A stretch of 64,000 nucleotides of DNA from Candidatus Latescibacterota bacterium (GCA_963707635.1 OY970173.1:416001-480000); one strand, 5' to 3'. Counted from the first letter of the stretch, positions 55,445 to 64,000 are shown. The notes: generated by a model not told the origin, from the letters alone. Made by a program: numbers and translations.

Positions 55445-56746
55445 CTACGGCATCTCCGGGAGGCGTTCGCGCGCCTCGGTCCGCTTCGCGTACAGCGCGT
55501 AGAACTGTCCCTTCACGCTGTCGAGCCTCGGCGCGCGGGCTTTCTGCTCGTAGTTCACGTCGAGTTGGGTCAGCACGAAGTACGACAACCCCGCGAATGC
55601 CAGCGGGACCAGATACGGGAGACGCCGCCGCCACGGCCGCTGATACAGCAGCTGCGCCGCCAGCACCGTCCCCGAGGCCAGGATCATGTGGAATCCCACC
55701 GACACCAGGTAGAGGAAACGGATATCCAGCCAGTCCTCCGGAAAGCGGAAGAAACAAAAGGGCGCCACCACGATGTACGTCCAGGCGATGAAGAACCGGA
55801 TGACACGGTTGCCGAACACGAAGCCGAACACCGAATACGAGACGATGCAGAACAGAATGACCAGCCGGATCGCGGTGGCGAACTCGTAGATGAACTTCAC
55901 CACCGGGCCCGCGCCGGTCACCAGCGTGGACGAGTGAATGGGAAACACCATGCGCACCAGGTACGACGCCAGGTTGCGGGGGACGGACCACGAAACTATT
56001 TCCAGGTCGGACGCCCCCGGGATGGCGCGCTGGATCGAGAGCTTGATGGCGAGCACCACGAAGGCCAGTCCGGCGAAGACAACGAGGTTGCGGTCGAATA
56101 TCTTGCGGCCCGTCTGCTCGCGAAAGAACAGGTTGAACGCCAGCATCAACCCCAGCAGGCTGAACGACGTCGTCTTCGACAGCAGGCACAGCGTGAAAAA
56201 CGTGAGGCAGAGGTTGAAATTTCTCCGCCAGATCGCACCGTTTTCCTGGAGCTCGTTCTTCACGTAGAAGACCATGGTGAGCAGCGTCAGCGCGGTGATC
56301 AGCAGGTCGCTGATCCCCGAGACCGTCATCACCGATTTCCCGTAGTTCCCCACCGCGCACTCGAACAGGAGCCCCGAGAGGACGGCGATCGCCCGGTCCT
56401 TCAGAAGGGTCCGGACCAGGTAGTAGACCAGGAAGGCGTTTGCGGAATGCACGAAAATGTTGAAGAGGTAGTACGCCTTTGCATCGAGCTGGAAGGCCTG
56501 GAACTCCAGGAAGAAGACCAGATTCGGGAGCGGCTGGAAGGTCTCGTGGAGGCGGGTGGAGAACACTTCCCTCCAGTTGCCCTCGATCCGCAGCGCCTGG
56601 ATCAGGTACTGCCAGTCGTCCCCGTGCCAGAAGGTGTTGTCGCGCACCAGCGCGAAGAAAACCAGCCCGATCGCGTTGAGAAGGAGGAGAAACGCCAGCT
56701 CTTTGGGGCGGGATGGGCGTTTCGCTGGGGTCGCTTCGGTGGTCAT
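55445..56746 (-). CDS. Polytopic membrane protein, possible GT-C-fold glycosyltransferase
   Basis: About 11 hydrophobic segments; FWHGDDW acidic motif after TM1; YYLFNIFVH, LLSK and RFLYL. Confidence 0.55.
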   Translation of the reverse strand: MTTEATPAKRPSRPKELAFLLLLNAIGLVFFALVRDNTFWHGDDWQYLIQALRIEGNWREVFSTRLHETFQPLPNLVFFLEFQAFQLDAKAYYLFNIFVHSANAFLVYYLVRTLLKDRAIAVLSGLLFECAVGNYGKSVMTVSGISDLLITALTLLTMVFYVKNELQENGAIWRRNFNLCLTFFTLCLLSKTTSFSLLGLMLAFNLFFREQTGRKIFDRNLVVFAGLAFVVLAIKLSIQRAIPGASDLEIVSWSVPRNLASYLVRMVFPIHSSTLVTGAGPVVKFIYEFATAIRLVILFCIVSYSVFGFVFGNRVIRFFIAWTYIVVAPFCFFRFPEDWLDIRFLYLVSVGFHMILASGTVLAAQLLYQRPWRRRLPYLVPLAFAGLSYFVLTQLDVNYEQKARAPRLDSVKGQFYALYAKRTEARERLPEMP

Positions 56747-56934
56747 GGATGGTCGGCGGAACCCTACGAGGTGCCCTGGCGCCGCCTGGTGGCGGGATGA
56801 TACTGGTCGACTTCGGGGCGCGTCCAGCGGTTTGGAATATTGCTTGCTGCATTTTTCGACCCGGTGCTATAAGCGACTCACTTTGCCCGCCGCCGCGGCT
56901 CGTGGTGCGCCGCGCGACGAGGAGAAATCGACCG

Positions 56935-57768
56935 ATGACCGGCATGAACGAGAGGACGCACGTGGGACCGCTCCGCTTCGGCGCGGCCGAATACACGTCG
57001 ATTCGCCCGCTCCTGTACGGACTCCTGCGCGGCGAGTCGGACGCGCACGTGTCGTTCGAGCCGCCGGGTGCCATCGTGGAATCGTTCGCGCGCGGCCGCT
57101 ATGACGCCGCACTCGTGCCCAGCATCGAGTACCTGCGCGGCGTGGGCCGCATGCTCCTCGCCGGCCCCGCCCTCGTCGGCCGGGCCGCGCCGGCCGGCGT
57201 CGTACTGGTCGCGCAGAAGCCGCTCGACGAACTCGAGCGGATCGCGGTGGGCGAATTCTGCCGCACGCCGGTCGCGGCGCTTCGCATCATCCTGGGCGAG
57301 CAGCACCGCGTGTATCCCGACCTCATGGTCGAGAAGCGCATCGCCGAAGACGACTGGCGCGACCGTTACGACGCCGCGCTCCTGACCGGCGACTCGGCTC
57401 TGCTCGAACTGACCGCCGAGAAGAGCGAGGGGCTGGTCCGCTACAACGTGACCGAGATGTGGAAAGCCCTCACCAAGACCCCGCTCGTCCACGCGGTGTG
57501 GGTGTACGACGACGCCGAGCGCGGCGACGAAATCGCGCAGGTCTTGCGCGAGTCGCGCGACCTCGGCGTGACCCGCCTCACCGCCATATCGGAAGAGGTC
57601 TCGCGCATCAAGGGCGTGGATGCCATGGTCCTCTACGACTACTTCACCCGCGCGTGGTCCTACGACCTGGGCGAGCGCGAGCTGGAAGGCCTGCGCACGC
57701 TCAACGACCTCGCGCGAAAGTATGACCTGATCCGCGAGAACCGCCTGGCCGTGGTGGCCAGGGCCTAG
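56935..57768 (+). CDS. MqnA/MqnD-family (chorismate dehydratase-like) protein, divergent
   Basis: LRFG...RPLLYGL, DAALVPSIEY, LLTGDSAL and W..LT..P.V.AVW; GAGGAG SD. Confidence 0.75.
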   Translation: MTGMNERTHVGPLRFGAAEYTSIRPLLYGLLRGESDAHVSFEPPGAIVESFARGRYDAALVPSIEYLRGVGRMLLAGPALVGRAAPAGVVLVAQKPLDELERIAVGEFCRTPVAALRIILGEQHRVYPDLMVEKRIAEDDWRDRYDAALLTGDSALLELTAEKSEGLVRYNVTEMWKALTKTPLVHAVWVYDDAERGDEIAQVLRESRDLGVTRLTAISEEVSRIKGVDAMVLYDYFTRAWSYDLGERELEGLRTLNDLARKYDLIRENRLAVVARA

Positions 57769-57940
57769 ATCCGGAGTCCGTTTCGCACGGCCGCAGTTAC
57801 ACCGCGGCCGCCCCTCCACGCTTCGAATTACTCCTGAACAACGTCTGGCGCGCCCGCGCATCGGCCTTCGAGCGCCACTCCCTCGTGGCGAGGATGGTGA
57901 GAATGCGATATGCTGAGCGGCACGCTACCGGAGGTCTTCC

Positions 57941-58294
57941 ATGTCGGACATGGTCCGAGAATTCAACGAGTACCGTCGCCGGATGAACGACCGCATCCTC
58001 GCGACCGATAACCTCGTCGTCAAACGCTTCTTCAACCTGGACACGAACACGTACCAGGAAGGCGCCCTCCCGGTGAAGACCAAGGAGATGCTGGGGCTGG
58101 CGGCGTCGATGGTGCTGCGCTGCGACGACTGCATCCGCTACCACATCCAGCAATGCCACGAGGCCGGGGTCACGCGCGAAGAGTTCTTCGAAGTGTTCGG
58201 CGTGGGGCTGGTGGTGGGCGGTTCGATCACGATTCCGCACATGCGCCGCGCCGTGGAATTCCTGGATGCGCTGGAGAGTGCGGGGCGCAAGTAG
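57941..58294 (+). CDS. Carboxymuconolactone decarboxylase/AhpD-like protein
   Basis: GALPVKTKEM, LRCDDCIRYH and VVGGSITIPH. Confidence 0.9.
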   Translation: MSDMVREFNEYRRRMNDRILATDNLVVKRFFNLDTNTYQEGALPVKTKEMLGLAASMVLRCDDCIRYHIQQCHEAGVTREEFFEVFGVGLVVGGSITIPHMRRAVEFLDALESAGRK

Positions 58295-58297
58295 CTC

Positions 58298-59278
58298 ATG
58301 TGGAAGCCCATCCGGCAGTTCATCGAGCGGCACGACGCATTCCTCATCACCTCGCACATCAATCCCGACGGTGACGCGATCGGGTCGGAAATCGCGCTGG
58401 CGCTGTTCCTGCGCCAGATCGGCAAGCGAGCCCTCATCGTCAACTCGACCGACATGCCGGACGCGCTGCGCTTTCTCGACCCCGAGAACGAGATTCGCGT
58501 CTACAGCGACCGGGGCTCCCGCGAGCTGATCGAGGGCGTCGACGCCGCCATCATCGTCGACGTGAACAACTGGGAGCACCTCGGCCACATTGGCGAGGCA
58601 CTGCAGAATCGGTCTCTCCCGCGCGCGTGCATCGATCACCACCAGGACACGGCGCCCGGGTTCGCGGACTACACCGTCAGCGACACCAGCGCGGCCGCGG
58701 TGGGGCTCTTGATCCTCGAACTCGTGCGCGCGATGGACGGACGCCTGACGCGGCCGATCGCGGAGGCGATGTATGCCGCCATCATCACCGACACCGGGAC
58801 GTTTCGCTTTTCGAATACGGATGCGCGCGTGCTCCGCGCGTCCGCGGATCTGTGCGACGCGGGCGTCAACGCCTTCGAGATGCACCGCCGGGTGTTCGGG
58901 AGCAAGAGCTGGGGCGCGGGCCGGCTGCTCGGCCCGGTGTTGAGCACGCTCGACTCGGCCGCGGGCGGAAAGCTCGCTGTCATGTCGGCGACGCTCGAGA
59001 TGGTGAACAACGCCGGCGCGAACTACGACGACATGGACGGTTTCGTCGACCTCGTGCGCGCGATCAAGGGCGTAGAGCTGGTCGTCTTCTTCAAGGAAAC
59101 GGTGGAAGGCGACGTCAAGGTGTCGCTGCGCTCCAACGGCAACGTGGACGCGCACGCGATCGCCAAGCACTTCGGGGGCGGCGGGCACACGATGGCGTCG
59201 GGGATGCGGGTGCCCGGGCCGATGGCGAGCGCGATCGAGCGGGTCACGAGAGAGTGTGTGCGGCTCGCGGGGTTCTAG
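58298..59278 (+). CDS. nrnA: DHH-family phosphoesterase (NrnA nanoRNase/pAp phosphatase)
   Basis: HINPDGDAIGS, IDHH, TDTGTFRF, SLRS and FGGGGH. Confidence 0.9.
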   Translation: MWKPIRQFIERHDAFLITSHINPDGDAIGSEIALALFLRQIGKRALIVNSTDMPDALRFLDPENEIRVYSDRGSRELIEGVDAAIIVDVNNWEHLGHIGEALQNRSLPRACIDHHQDTAPGFADYTVSDTSAAAVGLLILELVRAMDGRLTRPIAEAMYAAIITDTGTFRFSNTDARVLRASADLCDAGVNAFEMHRRVFGSKSWGAGRLLGPVLSTLDSAAGGKLAVMSATLEMVNNAGANYDDMDGFVDLVRAIKGVELVVFFKETVEGDVKVSLRSNGNVDAHAIAKHFGGGGHTMASGMRVPGPMASAIERVTRECVRLAGF

Positions 59279-59281
59279 GGG

Positions 59282-61315
59282 TCACTCCACGGTCAGTTCC
59301 CACACCGCGATCTCATCGGTCGCGAACTTCCTTTGAAACACGTCTGCGTGGTCGTCGAACCGCACGGGCACGGTGGTGCGATCGTCCCCGTGCATCCGCC
59401 CGTGTATCCGAAAGACGACGAACACGCGGCGCTGGAGCGAGCGTAGCCGCGCGAGGTCGTCCGCCGACGGGCCGGCCGGGGAGAACACGGTGTCGCGGAG
59501 CCGCTTCCGCGCGCTCATCTCGTCTGCCGGGTAGCCCCAGTTGCGCGCGTAGGTGTCGTTCCCCCAGTAGAGGTCGCGCGAGGCCAGCACGGGGACGCGC
59601 ACGATATCGTCCGCCTCCAGAAAGACCGCGTCGCGAGGCGCGGTCGTCCGAATCCACGCGTACGCCGCCCGCTCTCCCTCGGAAACGACGGCCGTGGACG
59701 CGTCCCGCACCGCGTGGTGGTAGTAGAGTAGGTGGAGCGGCAGCGATGCGCTCGCGACCACGGCCAGCGCGGCGCGACGAGCGCCCGCGTGGTTCCACAG
59801 CCGCTCGAACGCCCCTACCGCCAGCGCGGCCAGCGGGAGTTGGAGGAGAAAGGCGAACTTGGTCTCGTTGTTGGTTGTGAGATCGACGGTGAGCGCTCCG
59901 ATCAACACCCACAGCGTCCACAGCGCGAGCATGCCCGTCGCGCTCACGCTCAGCTCGGCAAAGGCGCGCGCTCCGATGATCTCCGGCGTGTCGCGATGTT
60001 CGCTGGACCGACGGAAGAAGACGAGCGCGAGCACGAGTGCGGGGAGGATGTCGGCCAGGAGCCCGAGCGCGTAGGCCGGCTGGAACGCGAGGCCCACCCC
60101 CGGTCCGCCGCCGCCGCTCTGAGCGGCCACCGATCGGAGGTACGGAATCGTTACCGCCACACCGAGCACGATCCAGCCAAGCAGGCGCACGTACGCGGGC
60201 CCGCCGCGCGACGGTTGCGCGCGGATCCACAGCAGGAGTGCCAGCACCAGCGCAGTGGCGAGCGCGAGTGTCACCCCGGTAACGACGTGCATCGCCAGCG
60301 TTCCCGCGATGCAAAGCACAAACGCCACGTCGTGTCGGCTGCTCCACGCGCCCCGCCGGGCGCTCAGCAAGAGGTACAGCAACGACGCCGCCAGCCCGAG
60401 CGTGAGCGAGAAGGCGGTTCCGACCATGAACTTGTCGAGGAACATGAACTGATTGCCCTCGACCGAGACGAGGTTGAAGGCGGTGGCGTGACCGGCCGGC
60501 GTCCACGGGAAGAATTGGCGGAGCAACTCGAGGCCGTGCGACCGGCCGGCGAGCGCGCGCGCGAGCCGCAGCGGATAGAAGAGATAGAACCAGCCGTTCA
60601 TCGCGAACAGCCACACGCACAGCCCGAGCACACGCGGGCCCGCGCGGCGGGAAAACAGCCCCGACAGGGCGTGAAACGCCAGCGCGCACGAGGTGAGTGC
60701 GATCGCATTCACCAGGATCATGGCGCGGAAGAAGTCGATGCCGGTCAGGGACGCGCACGCGGAGAGGATCGCGTGATAGCAGTACGGGTACTGAAGACGC
60801 AAGCCCGCGAAGTACGGATCCGTCAGGGGCAGGCCGTCGCGGGTGAGCTTGTCCGCCACCGCGGCGTGGAACCAGCTGTCCTCGCGCCAGCGCCACCAGG
60901 TGTCGGTCAGAGGGAGTGCGAACGCCATCACCGCGGCGGCCGCGATCGCCAGCCCCACCAGCGCGCCGGTCCGATGACCGGTGGAGACTGTCTCCCCCGG
61001 CGCCGATGACCGGCCCCACGCGACGAACAGCGCGAGCCCGGCCGCCACGCCGATCCACGCCGCCACGTTCACGTGCAGACCCGCGAACAGCGCGAGCAAC
61101 GTGAACGCCGCGAACATGACGGGAGACAACGCCGTGCCGACCCCGAGCGCCGCGTCGCGCGAACTCCGGGGTGCGACCGCGAGGCCGGGCAGGACGCCGA
61201 TCGCCAGGAACGCCGCCGCGACGCGCGCCGCCGTCGACGGGACTGCGAGCAGGCCCACGACAGCTGCCGCCGTCACGATCCGATGCGATACGCGATCGAA
61301 GACGACGGCTCTCAT
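59282..61315 (-). CDS. Large polytopic membrane protein, possible GT-C-like glycan-modifying enzyme
   Basis: Many TM segments; EDSWFH, P.TDPYFAG..L.YPY.YH; C-terminal soluble AYAWIRTTAPRDAVFL domain. Confidence 0.55.
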   Translation of the reverse strand: MRAVVFDRVSHRIVTAAAVVGLLAVPSTAARVAAAFLAIGVLPGLAVAPRSSRDAALGVGTALSPVMFAAFTLLALFAGLHVNVAAWIGVAAGLALFVAWGRSSAPGETVSTGHRTGALVGLAIAAAAVMAFALPLTDTWWRWREDSWFHAAVADKLTRDGLPLTDPYFAGLRLQYPYCYHAILSACASLTGIDFFRAMILVNAIALTSCALAFHALSGLFSRRAGPRVLGLCVWLFAMNGWFYLFYPLRLARALAGRSHGLELLRQFFPWTPAGHATAFNLVSVEGNQFMFLDKFMVGTAFSLTLGLAASLLYLLLSARRGAWSSRHDVAFVLCIAGTLAMHVVTGVTLALATALVLALLLWIRAQPSRGGPAYVRLLGWIVLGVAVTIPYLRSVAAQSGGGGPGVGLAFQPAYALGLLADILPALVLALVFFRRSSEHRDTPEIIGARAFAELSVSATGMLALWTLWVLIGALTVDLTTNNETKFAFLLQLPLAALAVGAFERLWNHAGARRAALAVVASASLPLHLLYYHHAVRDASTAVVSEGERAAYAWIRTTAPRDAVFLEADDIVRVPVLASRDLYWGNDTYARNWGYPADEMSARKRLRDTVFSPAGPSADDLARLRSLQRRVFVVFRIHGRMHGDDRTTVPVRFDDHADVFQRKFATDEIAVWELTVE

Positions 61316-62078: not shown

Positions 62079-62804
62079 ATGATTGAACCTGCTTCCCGAC
62101 TGCTGCTGTTGAGTAACTCGCGCAACGTGGGCGGGGGCTACCTGGACCACGCGGAAGGCTGGATCCGGGCGGCTCTCCAGGGCATCACCCGGGCCGTCTT
62201 CGTCCCCTACGCCGGGGTGACCCTCGCCTGGGACGAGTACGCGGGCACGGTGACGAACCGGTTCGCAGCGTTCGGAGTGAGCGTGACATCGGTGCACACG
62301 TCCAAGCACCCGGTGCGGGAAGTCGAGGGCGCGGCGGCCGTGATCGTCGGGGGTGGAAATACGTTTCATCTGCTCAAACACCTGTACGAAACCGGCACGC
62401 TCTGGGCAATTCGGGCGCGGGTGCGCGCGGGGGCACCGTACGTAGGATGGAGCGCGGGGTCGAACGTCGCGTGTCCGACGATCCGGACCACCAACGACAT
62501 GCCGATCGTGGAACCGGCCCGTCTCGACGCGATGCGCCTGGTTCCCTTTCAGATCAACCCGCACTACACCGACGCCGTGCTCCCCAACCACGGCGGCGAG
62601 ACCCGCGCGCAACGCATTGCGGAGTTCATCGCGGCCAACCCGACGATGACCGTGGTGGGATTGCCGGAAGGAAGCGCGATCGATGTCGCCGCCGGCGCGG
62701 CGACGCTCCTCGGTGCGCACTCGGCGAGAATATTCCGAAGCGGCCGGGAACCGTTCGATGTGAATCCAGGTTCGATGAGTGAGGCATGGGAGGCGCAATC
62801 ATGA
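62079..62804 (+). CDS. pepE: Dipeptidase E (peptidase S51)
   Basis: [50 protein letters not shown] and GETR. Confidence 0.95.
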
Positions 62805-64000
62805 AATGGATCGTGGCAGCAGTCATGGCGACCATCGCGACCGCGAGTAATGCCGGGCGACCGTACGTCCCTGCGCAGACGGTCACAAGCACGAACGCGC
62901 GCGCATCGTTGGTGGAGTTGTTCACATCGGAAGGCTGTTCGAGCTGCCCACCGGCGGAGACCTGGTTGAGCGACCTCGCGACGAGCGAGCGCCTGTGGAA
63001 GGACGTCGTGCCGGTCGCGTTTCACGTCGACTACTGGGATTACCTGGGGTGGGTTGACATCTTCGCACGGCCCGCGTTCAGCGAGCGCCAGCGCGACTAT
63101 GCGGAAGCCTGGAAGGCGGACCGCGTGTACACGCCGGGTTTCGTCGTGAACGGCGTGGAATGGAACGGCTGGCGCGACCGGCGACCGTTGCCGACACCGA
63201 GCGGTAGCGGCGCGATACTGACTTTGGATCTGACGCAGGAGAGTGCCAGGGTGCGGTTCGAACCGGCGCAGAAGCCACACGGCGAGCTCACCGCGCACGT
63301 GACGCTGCTGGGGATGGGCCTCGCGCGGAAGGTTCTCGCGGGGGAGAACAAGGGCAAGACCCTCACCCATGACTTTGTCGTGCTCGACTATCAGCGCGTG
63401 CGGCTCGTCCCCAACGGGGATGCGTTTGGGGGCAAAGGACGATGGAGCTACGCGAAAAACCCCGCACCCGCCGCCTACGCGGTGGCCGTATGGGTCACAG
63501 ATGGCGAGAGCAGTGAACCGATTCAGGCGGCCGGCGCGGCGCTGAACGATGCGAGCCTGCAAGCGCTTCAGTTTTCGCAGAACGGAGGAGAATCCATGAA
63601 CAAGATCAACAAGACGGAAGCCGAGTGGCGGGAGGTTCTCACCCCGGAGGAGTTTCGGGTGGCGCGCGAGAAAGGCACCGAACCGGCGTTCACGGGCCGT
63701 TACTGGAATAACCACGATGCGGGCGTCTATGTGTGCGTGGCGTGCGGACAACCGTTGTTTTCGTCCGATACTAAGTTCGAATCCGGCACCGGCTGGCCGA
63801 GCTTTTTCCGACCGGTCGATGAACGCAACGTGGCGCGAGAAGGCGACGAGAGCCTGGGCATGGACCGCACGGAAGTCATGTGCAGCCGGTGCGATTCGCA
63901 CCTCGGCCACGTCTTCGACGACGGTCCGAAGCCGACGGGTCTCCGCTACTGCATCAACTCGGCCGCGCTCAAGTTCGCGCCCAAGGACCCACAGGCCGAA
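62801..64000 (+). CDS. msrB: Signal peptide + thioredoxin-like DUF1223 domain fused in frame to MsrB (runs off the window)
   Basis: Manual translation gives 400 codons with no stop. Motifs: [39 protein letters not shown], then [32 protein letters not shown] and RYCINS. Not in the ORF track. Confidence 0.88.

Follow-up and report, generated by a model that had tools for sequence, protein, structure and literature searches.

A conserved DUF1223–MsrB fusion gene with a putative internal start and a possible redox partnership between its domains

A single gene in the 64,000-nucleotide stretch of Candidatus Latescibacterota DNA analysed here (the window; GCA_963707635.1 OY970173.1:416001-480000) joins a signal-like peptide, a DUF1223 domain bearing a CSSC motif, and MsrB in one chain. 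As judged from homologous sequences, this fusion is old and conserved, its second start looks selected, and the gene likely makes two isoforms: an exported long form and a short cytoplasmic MsrB. The reading favoured here, which is given a probability of roughly 0.5, is that, beside the existence of two isoforms, DUF1223 is fed by DsbD and reduces the exported one-cysteine (1-Cys) MsrB, with a predicted contact between the domains—the dock—representing the resting state.

The frame opens at ATG 62801 and, like every feature of the gene described below, lies on the + strand; it is stop-free to the window end (62801..64000) and closes 24 nt beyond, at window-equivalent position 64024, giving a protein of 407 residues. 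The upstream gene, included for context only, is pepE (62079..62804, + strand; dipeptidase E, NCBIfam PRK05282, 305 bits against a cut-off of 156), the stop of which overlaps the ATG of the fusion as ATGA. A Shine-Dalgarno (SD)-like GGGAGG (62788..62793) precedes the long form, with an anti-SD pairing of −10.2 kcal/mol. A promoter scan gave one weak sigma-70-like site upstream of pepE, and a terminator scan of the coding strand found none. A Sec-type signal peptide without a twin arginine is predicted at about residues 1–18 (62801..62854) from the sequence, a heuristic, and a modelled helix at residues 4–14. The DUF1223 domain follows (62909..63544) and contains the CSSC motif (Cys46 and Cys49; 62936..62947) and a YTP loop (63128..63136) that falls within the predicted interface. 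A linker of ~17 residues (63545..63595), variable in protein sequence and purine-rich ahead of the second start, leads into the MsrB (SelR) domain (63596..64000), which is of the zinc type with one catalytic Cys. Here are found zinc motif 1, CVAC (Cys312 and Cys315; 63734..63745), inside the predicted dock; Thr330 (63788..63790) of GTGWP, in the place of the resolving Cys (GCGWP) of 2-Cys MsrBs; zinc motif 2, CSRC (Cys361 and Cys364; 63881..63892); and the catalytic Cys384 of RYCIN (63950..63952), outside the predicted interface.

The N-terminal domain matches Pfam PF06764 over residues 37–232 (161 bits, cut-off 30.7) and model positions 1–201 of 202, and combines this full-length match with a CxxC and a predicted thioredoxin-like fold plus beta-sandwich, as in PDB 2AXO (sequence E 8e-20, fold E 2e-12); the family is classed as thioredoxin-like in PMC3091736. 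SelR (PF01641) spans residues 280–394 (180 bits, cut-off 24.9), and the TIGR00357 MsrB profile scores 199 bits against a cut-off of 113. The MsrB part also has the RYC(I/V)N Cys, GWPSF, and a modelled fold within an rmsd of ~1 Å of solved MsrBs; its enzyme activity is predicted. In the structure model, pLDDT is low at linker residues 261–263.

The preliminary description had read one open frame from DUF1223 into MsrB, had called for an architecture search, and had named a recent loss of a stop codon as the alternative. The frame is borne out by the profile matches and the 407-residue ORF, and both domains occur in 117 of the best 120 homologue clusters listed (the window's own included; 42%–100% identity), the other three being proteins of 234–245 residues with SelR alone. 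One homologue (P0015, 63% identical) matches a protein of a genome from the same genus (L004). DUF1223 is present in 17 of the 22 family relatives; 16 of these 17 are fused, the remaining one being truncated where its contig stops ahead of the linker, and in none of the 16 does a stop lie between DUF1223 and MsrB. Recent stop-codon loss or an assembly error is, therefore, refuted, with next to no probability left to it: the assembly does carry one frameshift-like break in another msrA, so errors are possible, but no other support was found, and the explanation is contradicted by 116 other fused clusters from several sources and by the stop-free linkers of the relatives. In a quick 130-row tree, the 58 fused rows used group with three unfused rows (SH-aLRT 87, unstarred support). 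Within the same order, one genome from a different family holds a stand-alone DUF1223 copy (L014). The pre-fusion state may be modelled by an unfused tandem (L134:2609-3740), in which the DUF1223 stop is followed 11 nt on by a signal-less msrB.

The MsrB part begins at an in-frame ATG (Met266; 63596..63598), the predicted start of a short isoform of 142 residues, and sequence and pairing energies place an internal SD, GGAGGAG, at 63584..63590; both are present as first described. The ORF holds six in-frame ATGs, and none of the others pairs as strongly with the anti-SD as this one (−12.8 kcal/mol, against −10.2 for the gene's own start) or has a 40-nt context as weakly folded (−3.0). Just ahead of the MsrB core, a stretch of five residues includes Met in 109 of the 117 homologues, Val in seven, and Leu in one; for windows of that length in other places of the DUF1223 part, the background for Met is 3.9%. 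At the DNA level, 18 fused loci were compared, two of which (L032 and L013) share the same linker and probably come from the same genome. Averaged over these loci, pairing at the internal start is −11.8 kcal/mol, the strongest of 310 codon positions (median −4.8), and its window is the least folded (−3.2) of 155 40-nt windows (median −11.4). In 18/18 loci, pairing is stronger with the real codons than the average over 1000 synonymous recodings (mean z −1.75), the loci being kin and not independent. An SD and an ATG/GTG are kept at the same place in three family genomes (G011, G017, and G018) that have no DUF1223 match and join a signal peptide straight to MsrB; in G011, this signal-peptide MsrB sits at the same pepE locus as the fusion.

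That there is one product only, with the internal SD and Met being unused relics of an ancestral msrB start, is quite improbable. Such a relic would fit L018, where the SD is weak (−3.9) and the start is GTG; the individual loci, only eight of 18 of which singly beat 95% of their own synonymous recodings; and the free exported MsrBs, in which a Met after the signal region also occurs (33 of 50 stand-alone proteins; P0237-P0346). It is at odds with the linker, which is divergent among proteins 45%–65% identical, yet keeps the start codon and an SD written in the rare codons AGG, AGA, GGA, and CGA, and with the Val positions for which DNA was read (L018, L226, and L227), where the codon is GTG. 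A Met just after the signal region is likewise seen in the neighbouring genes of L055, L050, and L238 and in some exported MsrAs (L210, L215, and L220), and Msr genes may commonly achieve dual targeting through a second start.

A heuristic based on hydrophobicity, charge, and AxA scores 93 of the 117 homologues as having a signal peptide (14 fail and 10 are too short), and by the same measure, 0/117 MsrB N-termini have a signal-like hydrophobic stretch. The source genome (G000, 96% complete) has no SelR match besides the fused domain, and in 10 of the 17 fused genomes, the fused MsrB is the sole match; the four extra MsrB copies read in other fused genomes (L230, L232, L234, and L235) each come with a signal peptide and a resolving Cys. 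In the family, MsrA is encoded by separate genes, exported and signal-less. The source genome has an exported MsrA 9 kb downstream of the fusion, and elsewhere a signal-less msrA (G000:C1:170667-171121; L193 and L194) split by a frameshift ~40 codons in, through pseudogene formation or an assembly error; the split in G012 lies at a similar position. A need for two forms would follow from the fused domain being the only MsrB of this genome, while its MsrAs are separate exported and signal-less genes. The two isoforms of the preliminary description are likely, given a start residue of Met, Val, or Leu in 117/117 homologues and an SD position that ranks best of 310. It is highly probable that ribosomes start at both ATG 62801 and ATG 63596; with the same high probability, the long form would pass through Sec and repair Met-R-sulfoxide in the envelope, beside the exported MsrA, and the short form would supply the cytoplasm. 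DsbD with its Cys pairs is present in the source genome, and a DsbD_TM match was found in 22 of 23 family genomes.

Cys46 is kept in 113/113 covering rows and Cys49 in 112/113, with both cysteines retained in 112/113 fused rows; CxxC occurs in 159/159 unfused DUF1223 loci, partly owing to the search pattern. The YTP loop is invariant (117/117) and would occupy the position of the thioredoxin cis-Pro loop. In the MsrB part, Cys384 is present in 115/117 homologues and Cys312/Cys315 in all 117, and no other conserved Cys was found among these 117. The resolving position is Thr in 94, Ser in 23, and Cys in 0 of the 117; the GCGWP motif with the resolving Cys of 2-Cys MsrBs and the RYC(I/V)N catalytic Cys are described in PMC8945050. 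The 1-Cys state was considered as a trait special to the fusion and rejected, with 110/110 free close relatives also having Thr or Ser, marking it as a trait of the clade. In Neisseria PilB, a thioredoxin-like N-terminal domain is followed by MsrA and MsrB; this domain reduces MsrB within the chain, with DsbD as the likely donor, and an internal AUG gives a cytoplasmic Msr-only form (PMC6210582). As the MsrB described here has no resolving Cys, its recycling chemistry must differ from that of PilB, and with 1-Cys MsrBs, thioredoxin can act on the sulfenic acid directly as the reductant (PMC3680461).

The resemblance to PilB, suggested from the outset and strengthened by the published confirmation of the PilB internal AUG, lies in a predicted export signal, an N-terminal CxxC domain of thioredoxin fold fused to MsrB, a putative internal start, and DsbD as the likely donor. 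The fusion differs from PilB, however, in that its N-terminal domain is DUF1223 (thioredoxin fold plus beta-sandwich, with CSSC) rather than TlpA-like, in the absence of MsrA from the chain, and in a zinc-type MsrB without the resolving Cys, so that the target would be a sulfenic acid and not a disulfide. The PilB-type model PRK14018 scores 146 bits against a cut-off of 522, with only the MsrB part matching; a Pfam search of the fused protein gave no Redoxin, AhpC, or Thioredoxin match in the N-terminal domain and no PMSR (MsrA) match anywhere in the chain. As far as these profile and motif comparisons go, the fusion would function in the manner of PilB and yet falls outside its group, from which the whole-protein model, the TlpA-like domain, the MsrA domain, and the resolving Cys set it apart.

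Atu2684 (PDB 2AXO) and SrlA belong to the same DUF1223 family and share the predicted signal peptide and CxxC; those proteins stand alone without a known substrate, whereas here DUF1223 is fused to a candidate one. SrlA of Sinorhizobium meliloti is needed against H2O2 and cumene hydroperoxide, its C61S variant still complements salt sensitivity, and the main text of that study makes no mention of msr (PMC9561847). In the literature searched, no reductase assay is reported for any DUF1223 protein. The MsrB part resembles plant MSRB1 and human MsrB2 and MsrB3 in being of the zinc type with Ser/Thr at the proximal resolving position (PMC3680461 and PMC7475093), and human MsrB3 is its top fold match (54% identity). 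MsrB3, which acts in an oxidising compartment and parks a Cys pair beside its zinc site (PMC7475093), relies on a short CX5C peptide, whereas the prediction here puts an entire folded CxxC domain at the zinc end. A further fold match of the DUF1223 model is HBP35 of Porphyromonas gingivalis (5Y1A; fold E 1.9e-8), which has Cys-dependent thioredoxin activity and internal starts giving shorter cytoplasmic forms (PMC2907840), but which binds haem, has no Msr domain, and is only 14% identical. The literature searched, supplements and most subscription papers aside, holds no description of a DUF1223–MsrB fusion; domain-architecture databases probably list the DUF1223+SelR pairing already, because the Pfam pair is precomputed for these proteins.

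The link between DUF1223 and Msr is also seen outside this family. Of 107 longer DUF1223 proteins, six include Msr domains, which are arranged in three further orders: signal peptide–DUF1223–MsrA–MsrB (P0151, P0155, and P0157, which have the full PilB order, and P0152, which ends early in MsrB), signal peptide–DUF1223–MsrB–MsrA (P0145), and signal peptide–MsrB–MsrA–DUF1223 (P0156). A quick LG+G4 tree built from 55 selected rows led to the rejection of one origin for all DUF1223–Msr fusions (p-AU 0.023). The five other complete fusions have MsrBs without zinc motifs; thus, the shared need is not zinc. In 159 unfused loci picked by DUF1223 similarity alone, an msr gene is the immediate neighbour in 18 (7 of 79 genome loci and 11 of 80 metagenome loci), where fewer than one would be expected given 867 kb of flank and an assumed two to three msr genes per 4 Mb. 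These 18 come from about seven lineages of Verrucomicrobiota, Gammaproteobacteria, and Bdellovibrionota, and most of the neighbouring Msrs have, by eye, an N-terminal signal-like sequence. Zinc motifs are lacking in 7 of 17 neighbouring MsrBs, three neighbouring MsrBA proteins have a resolving Cys, and MsrP/MsrQ-type genes occur in four DUF1223 loci. The repeated fusions and the adjacency support the functional DUF1223–Msr link that the preliminary description had proposed; the other 141 of the 159 loci, many of them short, have no msr gene within the DNA examined, which indicates that DUF1223 has other contexts. DUF1223 is also recurrently fused to PF04784 (named Alteromonas proteins), PF11376, and redoxin/AhpC-TSA domains (P0124-P0158 and P0171-P0224), and in a Bacteriovoracaceae genome, a signal-bearing fusion of Trx-like, AhpC-like, and MsrB domains—identified by eye except for MsrB—lies directly upstream of DUF1223 (L092:3409-4893).

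When folded as separate chains, the two domains were predicted to dock with a score of 0.70 against 0.00 for the best control, passing a mark that 116 of 157 solved pairs attain, but only 2 of 215 mismatched ones, counts that apply roughly to the custom alignment used here. The runs agree in at least 95% of contacts, with a partner pLDDT of at least 88. In the predicted interface, DUF1223 residues 48, 77–81, 91–102, and 107–113 meet MsrB residues 267–281, 309–318, 363, and 391–397. The dock would, thus, cover the zinc end of MsrB and leave out Cys384, with a conserved DYWD and YTP surface beside CSSC placed on MsrB 309–318, 363, and 391–394; the CSSC motif itself contributes Ser48 only, Cys46 not being a listed contact. 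Hydrophobic residues occupy all three of positions 309, 311, and 393 in 116/117 fused MsrBs but in 6/60 short free and 13/50 signal-bearing free ones, and the four MsrB positions most enriched for hydrophobic residues in fused over short free proteins (279, 311, 393, and 309) all lie in the interface. This supports a stable, fusion-specific contact, although the patch evidence is partly circular, the model having seen the fused alignment (but not the free MsrB set). At 393, most of the zinc-type MsrBs that neighbour an unfused DUF1223 carry Arg, His, or Glu, and therefore, the hydrophobic patch is not a general DUF1223 recognition site. An extra Cys by zinc motif 1 (CVCC, at the Ala314 equivalent) is found in 48/60 short free and 26/50 signal-bearing free MsrBs (P0230-P0347) and in 0/117 fused ones; its position falls in the predicted DUF1223 dock.

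The dock, as modelled, counts against a simple, always-productive PilB-like geometry, yet it is compatible with recycling because human MsrB3 parks its resolving disulfide by the zinc site, ~21 Å from the catalytic Cys, and still resolves (PMC7475093). In the favoured reading, turnover would leave Cys384 as a sulfenic acid with no resolving Cys; Cys46 would attack it and Cys49 would resolve the mixed disulfide, as modelled on thioredoxins acting on other 1-Cys MsrBs, a step for which the chances are slightly better than even. The zinc-end dock would be the resting state, with reduction occurring by a swing of the domain or between two molecules. Given the Cys46–Cys384 step, re-reduction of CSSC by DsbD is moderately probable. 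With the dock predicted at the zinc end and not at the catalytic Cys, direct recycling of MsrB by DUF1223 is graded as likely; that DUF1223 would serve MsrB by thiol chemistry in some way is quite probable. The proposal that DUF1223 recycles the catalytic Cys within the chain is partly challenged: the predicted dock omits Cys384, and G018 (92% complete), in which no DUF1223 was found, exports a 1-Cys MsrB. Also counting against recycling are the fusion-specific nature of the hydrophobic patch, the 1-Cys state as a clade trait, the resolving Cys of the three neighbouring MsrBA proteins, the 141 loci without msr, the exported MsrBs without a DUF1223 match of G017 (75% complete) and G011 (68%), and the function of SrlA C61S in salt. 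A more specific version is tentative: DUF1223 would be a dedicated envelope Msr reductant, unlike PilB, that clamps the zinc end via the groove beside CSSC, guards the zinc thiols during export, and acts as a tethered external resolving pair, with the internal start freeing a clamp-less MsrB into the cytoplasm.

Two other accounts of the fusion have to be set against recycling. With the two isoforms retained, DUF1223 may instead be a folding and protection partner whose clamp on the zinc end lets the four zinc-ligand Cys stay reduced despite the oxidising envelope, for which CcmG and apocytochrome c offer an analogy. This is unlikely, even though the placing of the DYWD/YTP surface over Cys312 and Cys315, the position of the four most hydrophobically enriched residues in the interface, and the retention of both cysteines in all 117 homologues are what a guard of the zinc end might produce, and even though a signal peptide without a twin arginine would imply that zinc is loaded after export. 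The non-zinc MsrBs of the five other complete fusions and of 7/17 neighbours speak against it and dispose of zinc protection as a general DUF1223 role; in addition, exported zinc-type MsrBs without DUF1223 exist (L226, L227, and L229), Cys46 is missing from the contacts, and the zinc-side disulfide of MsrB3 lets the position of the dock fit recycling too. Doubtful as well is a merger of two stress genes, in which DUF1223 would give the export signal and a packing surface while having other envelope clients (or Cys-independent work), and MsrB would be recycled by another thioredoxin-like protein. Its appeal comes from DUF1223 being mostly away from msr and fused to PF04784, PF11376, and redoxins, from the plain signal peptide that replaces DUF1223 at the pepE locus of G011 (G017 and G018 fit too), from the unfused tandem of L134, and from the salt function of SrlA C61S (PMC9561847). 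A merger of this kind is harder to reconcile with at least three further domain orders with MsrA/MsrB that arose separately, with the retention of both cysteines in fused rows, and with a dock that uses the conserved surface beside CSSC and not an arbitrary one.

DUF1223 is a widespread family for which a structure has been solved and a mutant (SrlA) is sensitive to peroxide, but with no known substrate in the literature searched. A natural fusion to MsrB, repeated in other domain orders, names a candidate substrate and offers an assay within one protein; should the dedicated-reductant reading be true, this would be the first substrate for a family found in bacteria, fungi, and plants. The fusion also bears on how non-cytoplasmic thiol-type Msr enzymes without a resolving Cys are recycled, and it provides a clean case of an apparently selected internal start, reached independently of PilB, through which a single gene likely supplies two compartments.

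Elsewhere in the window, two long membrane-protein ORFs of 433 and 677 residues lie on the − strand (55445-61315), the latter without a Pfam match; the ORFs between them we take, from the appearance of their sequences, to be MqnA-like, carboxymuconolactone-decarboxylase-like, and DHH-like. In the source genome, an 85-bp repeat at G000:C1:484516-484600 has 25 blastn matches on both strands, 16 of them at >92% identity over at least 82 bases, and is possibly a REP- or MITE-like element.
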